The notes under the pieces were generated by a model. The model saw only the letters and a program-made list of their open reading frames with translations, had not been told where the DNA came from and searched no databases. Of a stretch of DNA of 10,000 nt, positions 676 through 8,025 are shown in pieces (position 1 is the first letter of the stretch; every line of letters begins with the position of its first letter). Origin of the DNA: Centruroides vittatus (Eukaryota); NCBI RefSeq assembly GCF_030686945.1, contig NW_027122668.1, forward strand, positions 50,099 through 60,098, in the 5' to 3' direction. Both the position numbers and the translations under genes were made by a program.

Positions 676-843
676 TTGCATTTTCACAGTTCTGGAATAG
701 AGTCTCTGCACAAATTCATCTCTCCCCAGCATCTTCCAGTAGAATATGGTGGACAATTACCTCCTCTCGATGTTACCGAATGTAACGAAAGTATAATGAA
801 ATTTCAAGAATATTTTGAAGATAATCAGAAATATTTCAGCTAA
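676..843 (+). CDS. Terminal coding exon of a CRAL-TRIO domain protein (alpha-tocopherol transfer protein-like / SEC14-like lipid-binding protein). It encodes 55 codons plus a TAA stop.
   Basis: The translation is LHFHSSGIESLHKFISPQHLPVEYGGQLPPLDVTECNESIMKFQEYFEDNQKYFS*. It aligns with the conserved CRAL-TRIO C-terminus, for example human alpha-TTP ...[49 protein letters not shown]. Shared residues include HxHG, SL, LP-EYGG and IMK-x-x-Y. It is preceded by a tattttcag acceptor and ends at TAA 841-843. Confidence 0.8.
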   Translation: MHFHSSGIESLHKFISPQHLPVEYGGQLPPLDVTECNESIMKFQEYFEDNQKYFS

Positions 844-1935: not shown

Positions 1936-2064
1936 ACACACGGAACATTTCTCAGTGGTTTTGTTATTTTAAAAAATATACATTAGAATATACGTATTAT
2001 ACTCTGCAATACTACCTAACTAGAGCCTTATACCTCGTTTGCACCGAGAATTTCAATGTAGATT

Positions 2065-2806
2065 GTGAGCAAGGTCGGGGACTGTGTCTTGGTGCGATCT
2101 CTCTCGACCGTTTCAATCTCGACCGAAACGAGGTTTAATCTCGATCGATTCAAGAGAGTTCTTGAAACTAGATCCAGTCATAAGAGAGATCCCACAATCT
2201 CAAGCGTGCGAGATAATACAAGATGTCTGTGGAACACGTATCGGACTATGGACAGCGAAATAAAAAGGATATTGTATTTCGAGAGATGATGACATCTGTC
2301 TATCAGCAGTGCCATTCGAGGTGAAAAATTTCTCTGCCTGGAAAAAAAGGTCGACAGCACTAATACACTATTGTTACCTGGTCTTCGCCCAGGGCTCGTT
2401 ACGTTCCGAACACGCCACTGATTATTAGATATATCGCAAGAAAAGGTATTGTATTTATTTCTAGCCAAAACTTCCATTTCGTTTGTCAGTGATTGTCAGG
2501 GAAAAATTAGCGAACCCTTTGTTAACTATTTCGAATATCACCACTGGACAAGGGTATCACAGGACTGCCTCCCCCACATTGCCACACTTTCCTGGTCTGC
2601 CCAATCTGATTTGTCAGCGGTCGAACTTGTCTGGGATCATTTGGGACGCCAAGTTGGACAGCCTAGGAGTTTGGCCGAACTAGAGGACCACTCGCAGCAA
2701 CAGTGGACTGAGATGCCGTAGGACAACATATGTCACCTGTATTCCTACACGCCCGCCAGTATCACATCGTATATTCACACTAGAGATGGCTTAATCGGGT
2801 ACTAGA
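2065..2806 (+). pseudogene. Tc1-like transposase pseudogene fragment B. It covers a weakly conserved middle region plus a clearly conserved stretch from the DDE region to the C-terminus, with frameshifts.
   Basis: The segment 2430-2806 translates to LFLAKTSISFVSDCQGKISEPFVNYFEYHHWTRVSQDCLPHIATLSWSAQSDLSAVELVWDHLGRQVGQPRSLAELEDHSQQQWTEMP followed by DNICHLYSYTPASITSYIHTRDGLIGY*. Compare the consensus ...FQQDNARPHTARVxQxxLxxxxIxxLxWPARSPDLSPIEHVWDxLGRRVxxxxxxxTLxELxxxLxxEWxxIPQxxIxxLIxSMPRRxxAxIxARGGxTxY*. Upstream, KRDPTISSVRDNTRCLWNTYRTMDSEIKRILYFERDD resembles KKPLLSxxHRxARLxWAxxHxxWTxEDWxRVLFSDESRF more weakly. The DNA at 2535-2560 is visibly homologous to 1839-1865 in fragment A. Confidence 0.65.
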
Positions 2807-2944
2807 ACCTCCTTTAATTTATTATTTTGCCTGTAGTAAATGATCCTTGTGCTTTCATTTTAAATCACTTATATCACTGTTACACTCACACATGGTACTG
2901 TACTAACAACCCCTTCTTGATGCGGTAATTTTTATTGCAATTAG

Positions 2945-3010
2945 TGTATATAAAATTATATTTACGTATGATGTATTAATTATACAAATATATTTATGTA
3001 TGATGTAAAT
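2945..3010. repeat. Two-copy direct repeat of roughly 40 bp. The units are 2951-2967 (TATTTACGTATGATGTA) and 2991-3007 (TATTTATGTATGATGTA) with similar flanks.
   Basis: Seen directly in the sequence. The units are AT-rich and near-identical, with a spacing of 40 bp. Confidence 0.5.
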
Positions 3011-3089
3011 ATAATACATTTCCGTTTACCAATACATTTAATATACGTAATGTGAAAGATTCACGTAACGGGATACGTTATATGAGTGT

Positions 3090-3235
3090 TATGGTTAAAA
3101 TATGGTAACAAGAAAAATGAGAACGTGGATACAATGGATATGAATGGAACGTGGATTCTTTTGGATACAATTTAAAGGAAATTTTGAAATTACAGAGTAT
3201 CCTTGTATTCAAATGTATCCATAATCTTTTATTGA
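3090..3235. repeat. Cluster of short motif repeats. GAACGTGGAT occurs twice, GGATACA occurs twice, and its inverse TGTATCC / GTATCC occurs twice.
   Basis: ...gagaacgtggatacaatggatatgaatggaacgtggattcttttggatacaattt...agtatccttgtattcaaatgtatccata. The cluster is both direct and inverted. Confidence 0.45.
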
Positions 3236-4012
3236 GAGCAGTTTGTTTTCTATTTGTAATTTTTCATATGAGGTCTAGCGACAGTGAGGAAGAGGAGTGA
3301 GTAGATGGATTATTCTTATCCATATGTAGCCATATTATGGATTTATAGCTTTATTTTCATTACTTTGTCTAGAATAATAAATAAAATAAAACCATGGCTG
3401 TATTTTGAAATATTATTCTAATGGGCATATGAACTTTTTACAGCAATAAATAACGTTATGCTTTATTTTAATTACAGTATTACCGTAGTTTATCTACTTA
3501 ATTTTATTTTTGTACTCAATATGTTAATTTTATTTTATTATGCAATAACACGGTTAATAAAGAACACAACCAAACTATTTGATGTTTGTTTTAATAGAAT
3601 TTTCTAACACCTAACAAATTACAGTAATTTTTTAAATACATTTTCAGAATATTGTTGAGAAGATCTATCTTCAAAGTGGAGTGAACTTAAATGTAACTAG
3701 CAATTATTTATTGTGACATCTTCACAATGACGGGCTGCAATTTTTAATCATATTTTTAATTTATTTCATTTGAAATATATGCTCTCGATTTTAATAATGT
3801 CTTGCCCCTGTAAATCATACTTTTCCTGTTAACAATAGTCATGCCGGACATTTATCTAATTCCGTTATGGAGAGACGTTTTGAATTGAAACAGCGTTACT
3901 TTCGGTACAAAGTCCGGAAGTTTGTATACAGTTAATCAGGGCCTGCTGCTTCTAAGTTTTCTATTTCTGATCTCGATATTTATCTATATAACTACGTTCT
4001 CGCGATTAAAGA

Positions 4013-4051
4013 ATGACAGAAAATATACCGGCAGATGCTACCGACAATTTG
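4013..4051 (+). CDS. Candidate short first coding exon, MTENIPADATDNL, followed by a consensus 5' splice site GTAAGT. This is speculative.
   Basis: aaagaATGACAGAAAATATACCGGCAGATGCTACCGACAATTTG|gtaagtc. An Inr-like ACAGTT lies about 80 bp upstream. The exon is only 13 codons. No downstream exon was identified. Confidence 0.12.
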
Positions 4052-4443
4052 TAAGTCTTCAAATTAGGAATTGCAATCCAATAATCATGCACCAGTTATG
4101 AAAGAAATTTCAGCAACTTATTCGTAATTGGCATACAGTAATGGGCAAAGGAATAATAACAAAAATTCGTTCAATAAAAGAAACACTAAAAATTGTGATA
4201 GAAGCGTTAAATTTTCCCTTCCTTTACAATACCATATGAATTTGGTAATTAAACAGAGAAGAGAATAACCAATACAATGTATGAAAGTAGGAAAAATATT
4301 AATTTTGTTTAATCCTTACACTTTTTACTCTCGAGCAAGATACACTTCGAATTTAAGATTTAGTTGCAAGTTTCATTAGAATAGGAATTTCTGATTATTT
4401 TTAAATAAATTTTATTCCAATTTAATTAAGTAATTGTATTACA

Positions 4444-4451
4444 TAAGGCAT
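4444..4451. repeat. Target-site duplication TAAGGCAT, left copy. The right copy is at 6449-6456.
   Basis: Identical 8-mers immediately flank the inverted termini. An 8 bp TSD is the hAT hallmark. Confidence 0.8.
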
Positions 4452-4465
4452 CAGTGGCGTGCCGT
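4452..4465. repeat. hAT left terminal inverted repeat CAGTGGCGTGCCGT
   Basis: It is the exact reverse complement of 6435-6448. Confidence 0.85.
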
Positions 4466-4470
4466 CATTG

Positions 4471-4496
4471 GAAGCGGTGGAAGCGCCGCTTCCACT
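4471..4496. repeat. Subterminal GGAAGCG direct repeats followed by a 19 bp hairpin palindrome GTGGAAGCG-C-CGCTTCCAC (4478-4496)
   Basis: ggaagcggtggaagcgccgcttccac. A 9 bp perfect stem flanks 1 nt. GGAAGC / GCTTCC recurs at 4687, 4706, 4781, 4801, 6391, 6399 and 6416. Confidence 0.6.
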
Positions 4497-4671
4497 TTCT
4501 AATGACCTTTCCTTCTAGTTTCTAAAATATAATTTTTCATATTTTAACGTATTTTAAATTAATTAAAATTGATATTTTATTATAACTGCATTATGTATCT
4601 TATTACAAATTTCTATACTACATGTGAAAAAAACGAAAAGATTGCTATTGTATATTCGAATATCAGTGGCG

Positions 4672-4720
4672 GAATGGAAGCGCTTACGAGACAGCTTCCA
4701 CGGCGAGAATAACTGAATGG
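4672..4720 (+). repeat. Internal partial duplicate of the hAT left terminus, reading ATCAGTGGCG...GGAAGCG...GCTTCCAC
   Basis: 4672 atcagtggcggaatggaagcgcttacgagacagcttccacggcg compares with the terminus 4450 atcagtggcgtgccgtcattggaagcggtggaagcgccgcttccac. Confidence 0.5.
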
Positions 4721-5179
4721 TGTAAAGCAGCTAGAGGGCATTGGCGCATGCGCTTTACAACCTCACCCGGTTTAACTGGTGGAAGCTACACACGTGTAAC
4801 GCTTCCAACGATTCTATCTATCCTTAGCCACCGGGTAGGGAGTTACTGTATTTGATTAAGTAAATTGTTTTAAGATTTAAAAAGTAAAAAGTATTCAATG
4901 TTATTTCTATGTACGTTTTTTTTTTGCAAAGTTATATTTAATTATAATTTTCTTTTAATTATACTGTAATTATATTGACAGATTTTCAGACAAAATCTTT
5001 AGAATTTTTATCACTTTTAGATGTTAATAATTTTAATATTATGAAAAACAATTTTTCCAAGCGTGTTTTAATTCTTTAAAATAAGTAAATTTTATGGGAA
5101 ATTTTTTGATTTATCTAAATTACGTAGCGAATCGCAATATTTATATTCGTGTCCGGACTATATTGACAAGTAACTCTTA

Positions 5180-5480
5180 AACATAAAACATATTATAATT
5201 AATGTCGATCCGAACAAAGATGTACTAAAAGAATTATATGATTTAATATCATTAATTTTTATAATACCATCTACCAGTGCGTCTGTTGAGGGCAGTTTTT
5301 CGACCACGAAGCAAATTCATACATTGGCCAGGAACACTCACTCGGTCGGAGGAAAAATTGCCGTCGCTAGCATTGCTTTCGATAGAAAAAAAGCTTTCAA
5401 ATGCGATGATGGAGTCTACGACCAGCGACTTTTGTGATAAAGTAATTAACGACTTTGCGGAAAAAATCGCCCAATAGAGT
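5180..5480 (+). pseudogene. hAT transposase C-terminal dimerisation (hATC) domain remnant. It contains a frameshift and lacks the N-terminal and catalytic parts.
   Basis: Frame a reads VDPNKDVLKELYDLISLIFIIPSTSASVEGSFSTTKQIHTLARNT. Frame b reads LTRSEEKLPSLALLSIEKKLSNAMMESTTSDFCDKVINDFAEKIAQ*. Compare the hATC consensus ...LxxLAxxYLxIPATSAxSERxFSxxxxIxTxLRNxMxQERLNxLxLLxIExDxxxxxDFDxIIxxFAxxK. Confidence 0.7.
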
Positions 5481-6033
5481 TAGTTTATAAAAAATTAAAA
5501 AAACAAGTTTTTCTATCATTGTTTGTATCATATCAATTTGTATTATGTATGTATTATTTATGTATTTTAGAACTGAAATACATAAATTGTTTATTTTTGT
5601 CACTTCCAGTATTTGTTTAAAACTTTTATGGAAATGTGATGTACCGGACAGGTCTGACCCGTCACGAAAGACGCGAAAAAACGGTTAATTTAGAGAAAAA
5701 TTTATTAGTTTAAAAAAAATAGGTAAAAGTCGTTTGTAATCGGACCATTGTTTATATCAAACTGCGAGGCGGAAACCATAAATCGCGGAAGGAAGTCGTC
5801 CTATGATCGGTGAAAGATCGAATTCATCTTCGATTTTGACTTTTCTCCCGCTCCAGGTAAGAGTCTCGTTACGTTTAGTAACCAGGGACCAACCACTCGG
5901 GAATCGTGATTGAGGGAGAATGACCAATAAAATGGACAAAAGAAAGAACGGAGATTGATATAATCTCTGACAATCGAGGACACCTCGCACTCGGTTAACG
6001 TTCCGAATAACCAAACGCGCAAACACAACGCGC

Positions 6034-6057
6034 AAAAAAAAAAAAAAAAAAAAAAAA
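6034..6057 (+). repeat. A24 homopolymer tract, T24 on the minus strand. It is preceded by the direct repeat AACGCGCAAA twice.
   Basis: Seen directly as cgcaaacacaacgcgcaaaaaaaaaaaaaaaaaaaaaaaatac. Confidence 0.9.
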
Positions 6058-6434
6058 TACAATTTCTCGTCTATTGTGCCAACCTGTAACCCGTGCCACC
6101 TCGGACTTAGACCGTGTCCCCGACGCAAACAGAGGAAGTCTCCCCGTGCCCTACAGACTTGTCAACGCCATTGTCCCGGGGCCACCTTCGATCGACCATC
6201 AAAGAACCACATCGACGCCCAGGATGTCCGAACGGCTGATTGTCCTAAAGAAAACTATTTTGTACATAGTATATGTTTATTTTATGTTTCTTTTTTGTCG
6301 GGTTTTGTCAGGTACGTCTCTTCCGCCACCACGCACGTACAAATGGACCCTAGGCCATCACTGACGCGCAATTAACTGATTGCCCCTGGAAGTCGGCTTC
6401 TTACAGAAACACAGCTTCCCTATCATCAAATGTC

Positions 6435-6448
6435 ACGGCACGCCACTG
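6435..6448. repeat. hAT right terminal inverted repeat ACGGCACGCCACTG
   Basis: It is the exact reverse complement of 4452-4465 and is followed by the TSD TAAGGCAT at 6449-6456. Confidence 0.85.
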
Positions 6449-7254
6449 TAAGGCATGTGATTGTGTTATTGGGATTTAATAACACGTGCCTTATATAATT
6501 TAAACATGGAAGCAATAAATAAAATACGTAAATACTATATAATAAAATGAAAATTTCATTTACGGTTTCTTACTGGGGAATGTATTATAAATACTACATT
6601 TTTATACGTAATAGAAGATAGAAGTTTGTATCAGTGTGTAATACGTAGAAAGACTCGATAAGAACAAACATTAAAAGGAGATTGAAGTTGCTAAAAATTT
6701 GAAATTTGACAGCTGAAGCAATAAAGATGTCACCCTGTTAGTCTGGGGCACTCCCATCCAAATCATGGTCAATTCCGAAATTTTTTTGGATAAGTTAAAC
6801 AAGATATGTAGGCGACGTACCTTACCATTCGGCCGCATCAATTATAGTCGTTATCTCATAGGGTTATAAAGAAAATGGCCATCGTAGTCCCTGCAGTACA
6901 GGAGAAATTTCAAAAACTTTTGAGCATGCCCATTTATTTTGCAATGTTTTGGTTATTATACTTATAGAATTCTCATTAGTAAAATATTAAATTTATTTAG
7001 CCCCATCGATAGCATCTGTGATCTTTAATGTAATGTCATTATTAAATATATGCAACTTCAACTTTTTATACGATATGTGCTCTTTACAAAAATGTTATCA
7101 TATTATTATGCAATAATATACTCTCTCCACCCTGTGGGCACTAAGAGGGCCTCTTTTGGCAAGCCCATTATGAATTAGGCCAGGCTCACAATAACGCGAC
7201 TGGGTGTCGACATATCCGGTCTAATCACCTCCCAAAAATTCCTGAGGATTTGCC

Positions 7255-7326
7255 GATCTGTCCGGATTCGATCTCGGATCCCCCACTGCTGTAGGTTTCC
7301 ACCTTGACCGCTCGGCCATCTGGCCT
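7255..7326 (-). mobile_element. tRNA-like head of a probable tRNA-derived SINE or tRNA pseudogene, with a type II Leu/Ser-like A box and B box. The body may extend to about 7135.
   Basis: The minus strand reads GGCCAGATGGCCGAGCGGTCAAGGTGG...GGATCCGAGATCGAATCCGG. The A box TGGCCGAGCGG fits TRGCNNAGTGG, and the B box GATCGAATCC fits GGTTCGAATCC 9 of 11. The spacing is about 46 nt. It does not fold into an intact cloverleaf. The GC-rich island at 7135-7330 is flanked by AT-rich DNA. Confidence 0.45.
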
Positions 7327-8025
7327 TAATATACTTGGCTTGGTGACACTACCGTATTTTTAAATATCCCAACTTTTTTAATATTTTCCCAAAAAAGCAG
7401 AAAAAAAAGAAAACAAAGATGTAATATTTTAATATTAAAAATATTATTTTAAACTTCACTAAATGTAATTCTTTGAATATTTTTTTAATTCAATTTAAAA
7501 ATTCCATTTCTCTCATCACCACAAGAGGGCATCTTTATAACTCCCTCTTGCGTGAAAAGTGAAATTATGTTTTTAAATCTCTATAATTTACAAATTACAA
7601 AATCTTTACTAAATCCATATTTAAAATAAATGCTTCGCAATACGACTAATTTATAAACATTTAGATAATGTTTTTAATTTATCTAAAGAAACCATGAAAA
7701 AAAGCCATTCTGAATAATTCGAATTGTAATCGAATGAATATTCAAAATTAATAGAATGAACAATGTTTCAATTAATTAGAAATCTGTTTAATATAGTATA
7801 CAAAAAATTACGATTAAATAATGCAAATGCAAGACTTCTCGATAAATTAGGCCATACATTTGGATTGAAAAGAGAACAAGTTTTCTTAGGTAGTTTTTTT
7901 TTATAATATACAATCAATATCAATTTAGGTATATTTATAATGATCTGAATTTATAAATATTTCCAAACTAAACTAATTTATAAAGGATTTTAAAAAATAC
8001 AAAAAAGTATTGAATTGTATATACA

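Follow-up and report, generated by a model that had tools for sequence, protein, structure and literature searches.

Ac/Ds of maize is the textbook pair of an autonomous hAT element and an internally deleted, non-autonomous one. The pair belongs to the Ac family, in a plant host, and is characterized by a BED finger, 11-bp terminal inverted repeats (TIRs; CAGGGATGAAA) and AAACGG-type subterminal repeats; foreign "filler" DNA is frequent in the interior of Ds-type elements. In general, hAT elements have TIRs of 10-25 bp and target site duplications (TSDs) of 8 bp (PMC3942097). BuT2 of Drosophila, a member of the Tip group, encodes a transposase with DUF4371 and hATC domains, and its TIRs, which begin with CAGTG, span 12 bp and its TSDs 8 bp; its deletion-derived or MITE-like copies have kept the ends and lost the coding interior, and conserved TIRs and TSDs have been read as a sign of recent mobilization (PMC3942097). 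The target preference of the Tip group of hAT is unstudied (PMC3942097), and the Ac-type target pattern is nTnnnnAn (PMC10368747). Hermes of Musca domestica, an Ac family element whose TIRs span 17 bp and whose core motif is AAGT/AAGC, carries just inward of its left TIR two subterminal repeats that form a quasi-palindrome and a third repeat nearby, all bound by N-terminal zinc-finger domains; its ends are asymmetric, and ~220 bp per end are required in cells (PMC10368747).

The window analyzed here, a stretch of 10,000 nucleotides taken as a whole, contains at 4452-6448 what is very probably an internally deleted, non-autonomous hAT element of the insect ZMYM1-like clade that was inserted at this site by cut-and-paste transposition in trans. 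The initial annotation had already proposed a non-autonomous hAT element that has lost most of its transposase, and this proposal is borne out by a Pfam match, by homologs of ~720 aa and by terminal homology at both ends. The features of the insertion, in window positions, are as follows.

4444-4451, no strand: left TSD copy, 8 bp, TAAGGCAT, identical to 6449-6456
4452-4465, + strand: left TIR, 14 bp, CAGTGGCGTGCCGT, starting CAGTG in agreement with the hAT YARNG pattern
4470-4493, + strand: subterminal cluster 1, with GGAAGC direct at 4470 and 4479 and GCTTCC inverted at 4488 (element positions 19, 28 and 37)
4664-4699, + strand: subterminal cluster 2, a terminus-like CAGTGGCGG followed by the inverted pair GGAAGC 4676 / GCTTCC 4694
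4781-4806, + strand: subterminal cluster 3, the inverted pair GGAAGC 4781 / GCTTCC 4801
~5054-5494, + strand: degenerate transposase C-terminus, ~130 codons including hATC (Pfam, phmmer, tblastn)
5495-6410, no strand: extra DNA of ~0.9 kb between the remnant and the right end, an AT-rich part and then a GC-richer block
6414-6419, - strand: single right-end hexamer, GCTTCC on the + strand and GGAAGC reading inward, in the context AGGGAAGCTGT
6435-6448, - strand: right TIR, ACGGCACGCCACTG on the + strand, the exact reverse complement of the left TIR
6449-6456, no strand: right TSD copy, 8 bp, TAAGGCAT, directly abutting the right TIR

Ends of the element and the target site

The two TIR arms are complementary over 14 nt with no mismatch, complementarity ends there, and exact copies of the 14-bp TIR and of TAAGGCAT occur in the 10-kb window only at the ends of the element. 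When up to three mismatches are allowed, the TIR 14-mer has 3 matches in the window versus 0.17 expected, a number reached in 0 of 200 shuffles. Random windows from a first-order Markov model (n = 300) contained an inverted repeat of at least 8 nt abutted by a perfect 8-bp direct repeat 0.03 times per window, and for the 14 + 8 matched positions seen here an analytic estimate (0.28^22 × ~6e7 position pairs) gives ~5e-5 chance occurrences per window. The perfect 14-bp TIRs and perfect 8-bp TSD described in the initial annotation are confirmed. The length given there, a "1997 bp interior", includes the TIRs and therefore describes the entire element; the interior without TIRs measures 1969 bp.

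An 8-bp TSD adjoining the TIRs and a TIR length of 14 bp both agree with the hAT pattern, as does the CAGTG start, hAT TIRs being said to follow a YARNG rule. The target itself fits less closely: position 2 of TAAGGCAT is A rather than T, positions 4-5 are GG and position 7 is A, so that A7 alone agrees with the Ac-type nTnnnnAn, and the nnnTAnnn reported for Buster-type elements is likewise not fitted. The TSDs of a second element in the window (GACAAGGG) and of a related element in Carabus (AATTTAAG) also fit neither the Ac nor the Buster pattern in full. The empty site is predicted to read ...GTAATTGTATTACATAAGGCATGTGATTGTGTTATTGGG..., with a single TAAGGCAT and the insert absent.

The transposase remnant and its autonomous relatives

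The coding remnant contains an hATC dimerization domain (PF05699; E=1.3e-4, 22.1 bits vs a gathering score of 21.4) at ~5213-5335 on the + strand, and a Pfam scan of every frame of the element returned no other domain. The frameshifted hATC remnant of the initial annotation is thus real as a domain, but its damage amounts to one in-frame stop (5171-5173) and two frameshifts (at ~5338 and ~5465) rather than a single frameshift. Given these lesions, the lineage is not young, though the present insertion might be. A phmmer (HMMER) search of 1.84 G representative proteins with the repaired 125-aa peptide gave 398 matches (best E=1.9e-22), which align to aa ~595-715 of ~720-aa insect proteins; a 5-mer word-index protein search with the same repaired remnant, unlike exhaustive HMMER, returned no match. 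Nearest to the remnant are insect hAT transposases of the "ZMYM1-like" kind, with DUF4371 and hATC, which are 40-49% identical to it and are named ZMYM1-like by their sources for Periplaneta and Arctopsyche. By these relatives and by its AT-richness, the window has the look of insect DNA. Among the 1.84 G representatives, identity peaks at 49% for a near-full-length match and at 64% for a fragment of 67 aa. The matched proteins carry DUF4371 and Dimer_Tnp_hAT, and several also carry FAM200-ZBED5_RNase-like. In tblastn, seven full-length relatives (613-1069 aa) covered the window with aa ~590-724 alone; ~80% of the transposase gene is gone, including the N-terminal ~590 aa. The element accordingly has no intact ORF, DDE/RNase-H-like core, DUF4371 region or N-terminal zinc finger, as an autonomous element would; it has kept TIRs and subterminal repeats and lost a functional transposase, as in Ds-type elements. 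At 1997 bp and with a coding remnant, it falls outside the MITE class, whose members are small (~<800 bp), lack coding capacity and occur in many copies. In a different organism, a related remnant of 71% DNA identity is likewise decayed.

Comparison loci for the ends were those of Arctopsyche grandis (L006, XP_077293750), Carabus blaptoides (L007, GLV39564.1) and a Logan contig (L001, SRR14690712). The intact relatives in the caddisfly, the ground beetle and the Logan sample all have CAGTGGCG termini. The left 45 nt of the window element, which starts CAGTGGCGTGCCGTCATTGGAAGCGGTGGAAGCGCCGCTTCC, share 82% identity with the Arctopsyche left end (E=2e-7; alignment A1); the Arctopsyche element occupies 2356-5242 of its locus and starts CAGTGGCGTGCGGTCCATGGATGCGGTGGATGCGGCGCATCC. 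The Carabus element (1986-5266 of its locus) has termini CAGTGGCGTGCA.../...CAGTGGCATG and a perfect 8-bp TSD, and the Logan element has a 12-bp TIR, CAGTGGCGGCTC, with the contig ending 1 nt outside it. On the right, the context of the window hexamer aligns with AGGGATGCTGT in Arctopsyche and AGGGATGCTCC in Carabus (alignment A2). At either end, the alignment with intact autonomous elements (A1, A2) takes in the terminus and ~30 nt inward of it, and each window end pairs with its counterpart, left with left and right with right, in single autonomous hAT elements. Since these three relatives come from other orders or species, none of them is the actual partner of the window element.

Subterminal hexamers, interior DNA and a second element

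Of the ten copies of GGAAGC/GCTTCC in the window, eight lie within the element, all of them exact, and seven of these fall in the leading 355 bp. Cluster 1 falls within a hairpin-forming palindrome (4464-4506; DNA fold z=-5.5), and 35 nt separate the outer edge of the right-end hexamer from the right tip. The window and Arctopsyche elements alike have hexamers at element positions 19, 28 and 37 and another ~35 nt inward of the right end; a further locus, L003, from another sample, has GTAATC at left positions 19, 28 and 37, its right end lying off the contig. The hexamer itself varies: GGAAGC in the window element, GGATGC in the caddisfly and beetle elements, GGTTCG in the second window element and GTAATC in L003. 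The Logan element has inward motif clusters as well, with GTACAGCC at 27, 258 and 373. We considered whether a nested or shorter element might begin at the copy of CAGTGGCGG at 4664, but this copy has no matching TSD; we therefore take it for an internal subterminal repeat rather than another element end.

The initial annotation overlooked ~0.9 kb of unrelated DNA that separates the remnant from the right end. It has no Pfam, Rfam or protein match, and in autonomous relatives the distance from stop codon to right end is just 67-565 bp. This stretch could be filler, DNA that was captured, or the trace of an old nested insertion. Its GC-richer block (~5640-6250) contains an A24 run (6034-6057). 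As the mark of a nested SINE or retroposed insert this run finds no support, there being neither a flanking duplication nor a tRNA or Rfam match; the sole candidate direct repeat for a retro-insertion, TGTTTATTTT (5588, 6274), is AT-rich, and the A run is not where it ends. The ORFs at 5757-6128 (- strand) and 6076-6375 (+ strand) have no support as genes, and a search with 16 concatenated ORFs, drawn from the element and the flanking DNA, gave no homolog, as exact look-ups of ORFs gave no record.

The window holds one further insertion of this kind.

1858-2546: second hAT element of the same clade, 689 bp; its TIRs (14 bp) and its TSD (8 bp, GACAAGGG) are both perfect

Here the hexamer GGTTCG stands at positions 19, 29 and 37 and at 36 from the right end. 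By its size, this element would fit a MITE. The interiors of the two window elements show no similarity to one another past CAGTGG. The second element sits inside, and postdates, a heavily decayed Tc1-like relic, which matched SB100X in a phmmer search of PDB sequences; Pfam found no domain in the relic, and tblastn with an approximate Sleeping Beauty query found no match.

Origin, age and known systems

We posit that a transposase supplied in trans would have recognized the TIRs together with the GGAAGC hexamers at their fixed positions, that the element would then have been excised from elsewhere and integrated over a staggered 8-bp cut, and that repair of this cut would have produced the TAAGGCAT duplication. 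Abortive gap repair may account both for the internal deletion and for the foreign DNA of ~0.9 kb. By analogy with the STR1-STR2 palindrome and STR3 of Hermes (PMC10368747), the hexamers are putative binding sites of the N-terminal zinc finger of the transposase. We infer, in line with the initial annotation, that the element last moved in the evolutionarily recent past and that this would have required a partner in the same genome, which may be active or recently active. The TIRs and TSD offer just 22 compared positions, and are therefore compatible with any age up to ~7% neutral divergence per lineage. Searches for other copies, in collections outside which the host genome lies, gave 0 matches for the 24-mer terminus in metagenome contigs and for a 20-mer in viral contigs, and a back-translated peptide scan of metagenomes gave one relative only (42%). 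No other copy of the element, no empty site and no full-length partner with more than 49% amino acid identity over a near-full-length match was found in the collections searched, the host genome not being among them. In the full-text literature, the TIR string matched only an unrelated PCR primer.

Three other explanations bear on this reading. The one that deserves most weight, and that we regard as doubtful but by no means negligible, holds that the deletion derivative is an old, immobile relic whose ends escaped mutation by luck, and that the genome has no autonomous partner that is, or recently was, active. The chance that the 14 TIR and 8 TSD pairs remain unchanged, exp(-44*d), is 41% at 2% and still 11% at 5% divergence per lineage; age is also consistent with the stop and two frameshifts of the coding remnant, with relatives no closer than 49% near full length and 64% over the 67-aa fragment among the 1.84 G representative proteins, and with the 71% identical remnant elsewhere that has decayed likewise. 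Luck would, however, have had to extend to all eight subterminal hexamers, and the second element of the same clade, with its unrelated interior, also has perfect TIRs and TSD and is younger than the decayed Tc1-like copy. Close relatives, moreover, are missing because the host genome is absent from the databases, where a CRAL-TRIO-like host exon at 676-843 is likewise unmatched.

The remaining two concern the identity of the element rather than its age. An 8-bp TSD is not exclusive to hAT, P elements making 8 bp duplications too, and the ~0.9 kb of unassigned interior together with the second terminus-like CAGTGGCGG at 4664 could be taken to indicate another cut-and-paste superfamily with 8-bp TSDs, or a composite of the ends of two elements. 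We consider this very unlikely: coding homology is solely to hAT transposases, the left and right ends match those of single autonomous hAT elements, and the internal CAGTGGCGG lacks a matching TSD. That the inverted and direct repeats are a coincidence in AT-rich DNA, with an unrelated hATC-like fossil lying between them, might be argued from TIRs of only 14 nt and from a Pfam score barely over threshold. Only ~5e-5 such structures are expected per window, and the idea is effectively refuted by the alignment of both ends with autonomous elements whose transposase best matches the internal remnant. Coding homology that includes hATC, in the PF05699 match and the 398 HMMER matches, agrees with hAT membership, and we retain the reading of a non-autonomous hAT insertion; for annotation, 4444-6456 should be masked as such and not mined for genes.

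A further element of this clade with perfect ends in the same 10 kb raises the plausibility of fairly recent hAT activity in the host genome without proving it, and the two elements together suggest that hAT transposition shaped the genome fairly recently. Such activity would be relevant to assembly, to structural-variant calling and to searches for an active endogenous transposase in the species. The fixed position and variable sequence of the hexamer provide a small, testable lead on how transposases recognize their ends. It is conceivable, and we put it forward only tentatively, that the end "grammar" of the clade is rigid (CAGTGG; the hexamer direct at 19 and 28 and inverted at 37, with a further copy ~35 nt inward of the right end) and that the hexamer has been swapped between lineages, giving specificity variants and two orthogonal, co-resident transposases. 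If the hexamer is indeed the recognition site of the zinc finger, then the lineages are natural specificity variants and each window element would need its own transposase, which would make them a ready series for a zinc-finger/STR recognition code or for orthogonal transposon tools. The present understanding of hAT elements is unchanged by the window element.

Compared with the autonomous relatives in Arctopsyche, Carabus and the Logan sample, whose transposase C-terminus is 44-49% identical to the remnant and which likewise have a hexamer-rich left end upstream of the ORF, the window element is shorter (2.0 kb vs 2.9-3.8 kb), retains ~130 degenerate codons instead of an intact or near-intact gene of 613-726 aa, contains ~0.9 kb of unrelated interior DNA and has GGAAGC where the relatives have GGATGC. 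BuT2 resembles it in the CAGTG start of the TIR, in the 8-bp TSD and in the DUF4371 and hATC domains carried by the relatives of the window element, whereas its TIR diverges after CAGTG (CAGTGCTGCCAAC...); beside the Tip grouping of BuT2, we note that the RNase-like Pfam match of these relatives is to the FAM200/ZBED5 model. Ac/Ds offers the same arrangement of a deletion derivative with TIRs, subterminal repeats and an 8-bp TSD, mobilized by transposase in trans, but belongs to a different hAT clade. For Hermes, binding of the subterminal repeats was observed in experiments, whereas binding of the window hexamers would be predicted from their conserved position only.

Boundaries and transposase remnant of the main element

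The main element, a hAT element at 4452-6448, measures 1997 bp with its terminal inverted repeats (TIRs), and its parts lie in the window as follows.

4444-4465: left boundary; preceded by cat, target-site duplication (TSD) TAAGGCAT, then TIR CAGTGGCGTGCCGT
~5054-5100 to ~5494: extent of hAT homology (frames read by eye)
~5213-5335, + strand: match to Pfam PF05699, the hAT C-terminal dimerisation region
5495 to ~6410: stretch containing a GC-richer block and an A24 run (6034-6057)
6435-6456: right boundary; TIR ACGGCACGCCACTG, TSD TAAGGCAT, followed by gtg

The 14-mer of the TIR occurs exactly twice in the window, once per strand; the 8-mer of the TSD also has exactly two copies, which lie on the + strand and each abut a 14-mer. 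Complementarity between the two ends extends over 14 nt and no further. These exact copies bear out the initial annotation, which had described 14-bp exact inverted repeats and an identical 8-bp duplication. Inverted repeats immediately bordered by a perfect 8-bp direct repeat were sought across the window, and two were obtained even with an arm length of 14; the random expectation under the far weaker criterion of 8-nt arms is 0.03 per window (300 first-order Markov random windows), and the chance estimate for 22 matched positions is ~5e-5 per window. The TIR and TSD structure is real, not chance. The TSDs seen match neither published target consensus cleanly.

PF05699 is the single Pfam match in six-frame translation (E=1.3e-4, 22.1 bits vs a gathering score of 21.4). 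An HMMER search of 1.84 billion representative proteins with the repaired 125-aa peptide gave 398 matches at E<=1e-3 (best E=1.9e-22), almost always aligning query residues 2-122 with the last ~120 residues of ~720-aa proteins. The matched proteins combine DUF4371 (PF14291) with Dimer_Tnp_hAT, several also containing the FAM200-ZBED5 RNase-like model. Those with names are insect sequences, called "zinc finger MYM-type protein 1(-like)" or hypothetical, and belong to Periplaneta americana, Arctopsyche grandis and Carabus blaptoides. When seven full-length relatives were compared with the window by tblastn, residues ~590-724 alone matched, and no part of the N-terminal ~590 aa was found. The earlier description of a gutted interior with a C-terminal remnant is thus upheld; the remnant is disrupted by two compensating frameshifts (~5338 and ~5465) together with an in-frame stop (5171-5173), rather than by one frameshift.

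At its left end the element retains ~600 bp, close to the 645 bp that separate left tip and ATG in the Arctopsyche element, and it has lost ~1.8 kb of coding sequence while keeping the last ~130 codons. From remnant to right tip it measures 971 bp, in contrast to 67-565 bp in autonomous relatives. The ~0.9 kb stretch from 5495 to ~6410 had no match in any search made (including Pfam, Rfam and proteins), and no insertion signature of its own was found. Filler or captured DNA in hAT derivatives usually originates by abortive gap repair, and this stretch may have been acquired in that way.

Ends shared with intact relatives

We retrieved the DNA around four full-length relatives for comparison of the ends. 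The Arctopsyche locus (L006, XP_077293750) holds an element at 2356-5242 with a 724-aa gene, and its left end CAGTGGCGTGCGGTCCATGGATGCGGTGGATGCGGCGCATCC is 82% identical over 45 nt (E=2e-7) to CAGTGGCGTGCCGTCATTGGAAGCGGTGGAAGCGCCGCTTCC in the window. The Carabus element (L007, GLV39564.1; 1986-5266) runs from CAGTGGCGTGCAATCC... to ...CAGTGGCATGTAGTGG, and its 8-bp duplication, AATTTAAG, is perfect. A Logan contig (L001, SRR14690712) begins one base outside CAGTGGCGGCTC...; an intact 726-aa ORF is followed there by the inverted copy of this terminus (3821-3832). The right ends can be aligned at equal distance from the tip (AGGGAAGCTGT in the window, AGGGATGCTGT in Arctopsyche, AGGGATGCTCC in Carabus). 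A palindrome, GCGCATGCGC, lies ~290-330 bp inside the left end both in the window (4742-4751) and in the L006 element (~325-334), where it could serve the transposase gene as a conserved promoter motif.

A left scaffold of TIR, hexamer, hexamer and inverted hexamer is common to five elements from four sources (L003, a further contig with a relative, 677-718; L006 2356-2397; L007 1986-2018; window 4452-4493 and 1858-1899). The scaffold is constant and the hexamer sequence variable, all copies within one element changing together.

Subterminal hexamers (sequence; left-end positions; right-tip distance)
Window 4452-6448: GGAAGC; 19, 28 direct, 37 inverted; 35 nt
Arctopsyche L006: GGATGC; 19, 28 direct, 37 inverted; 35 nt
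L003: GTAATC / GATTAC; 19, 28, 37; contig ends before right end
Second window element: GGTTCG; 19, 29, 37; 36 nt

Of the eight hexamer copies in the main element, seven fall in the first 355 bp; the remaining 8 kb of the window contain only two copies of GGAAGC. The left end has three inverted pairs or clusters:

4470-4493
4676-4699
4781-4806

A second element in the window and the insertion site

The second match to this end grammar interrupts an older transposon.

1858-2546: non-autonomous element, 689 bp; perfect 14-bp TIR CAGTGGTGATATTC; perfect TSD GACAAGGG at 1850-1857 and 2547-2554
~1250-2800, + strand: heavily decayed Tc1/mariner-type transposase relic, interrupted at 1858-2546

Direct comparison revealed no interior similarity between the two window elements. 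The relic had no Pfam match, and the only PDB sequence match of its repaired form is the catalytic domain of Sleeping Beauty SB100X (5cr4, E=6e-7). After removal of the element and one TSD copy, both the alignment to SB100X and the frame FQDDNARPHTTR/VSQDCLPH... continue uninterrupted over the junction. This provides a built-in "empty-site" control and shows that elements of this clade integrate in this genome with 8-bp duplications.

The main element inserted at the left edge of an imperfect palindrome of 45 nt, TAAGGCATGTGATTGTGTTATTGGGATTTAATAACACGTGCCTTA (6449-6493; DNA fold -10.3 kcal/mol, z=-6.1), which reflects either target preference or coincidence. On the - strand at ~7180-7345, a stretch GGCCGAGCGGTCAAGG...GATCGAATCCGGACAG resembles by eye the A-box and B-box of a tRNA-derived SINE head; ARAGORN and Rfam (E<=1) gave no match there. 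An ORF ...LHKFISPQHLPVEYGGQLPPLD...* at 676-843 (+) is similar to the C-terminal end of a CRAL/TRIO-domain protein (PF00650, E=0.004, 17.4 bits, under the 22.6-bit cut-off), and a word-indexed search retrieved no homologue; this could be the final exon of a host gene, lying ~3.6 kb upstream from the main insertion.

Origin, age and related systems

The main element has every structural feature of a non-autonomous hAT element and, as expected, no intact transposase, and we are highly confident in this assignment. We propose that it arose, in the manner of Ds, by internal deletion from an autonomous hAT element belonging to the ZMYM1-like clade. Given that it contains no transposase, insertion here needed enzyme supplied in trans, and the 8-bp duplication is the footprint of that integration.

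Whether the partner transposase is active in this genome, now or recently, as the initial annotation proposed, we regard as evenly balanced. That two elements with perfect ends lie within 10 kb raises the likelihood of fairly recent hAT activity. The dating power of perfect ends is weak: for 22 compared pairs, P(no difference)=exp(-44d), which gives a 95% bound of d ~0.07 substitutions per site per lineage. At the insect mutation rate of ~3e-9 per site per generation, this allows up to ~2e7 generations. No homologue was found for 16 ORFs of the element and its flanks, exact ORF look-ups found no record, and its terminal 20-24-mers are absent from metagenome and viral collections; the only relative found by a peptide-pattern scan stood at 42%. 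Another AT-rich organism (Logan ERR14151082 and ERR14151083) has the same transposase C-terminus as a decayed remnant, 71% identical in DNA to window 5233-5470 with a 67-aa ORF 64% identical, on ~1-kb contigs with no recognisable element termini. This remnant indicates that the transposase family is old and widespread and is uninformative on activity here.

In Hermes, three BED zinc-finger domains have been shown experimentally to bind a quasi-palindromic repeat pair and a third repeat beside the left TIR, and the ends are asymmetric, ~220 bp of each being needed in cells (PMC10368747). The hexamers of the main element mirror this left-end layout. A hexamer of fixed position and variable sequence may mark co-evolving specificities of transposase and ends, and is the one mildly interesting lead from the element. 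The closest analogues of the main element are Ac/Ds, the deletion derivatives of Drosophila BuT2 (PMC3942097) and the ZMYM1-like elements of Arctopsyche, Carabus and the L001 contig.
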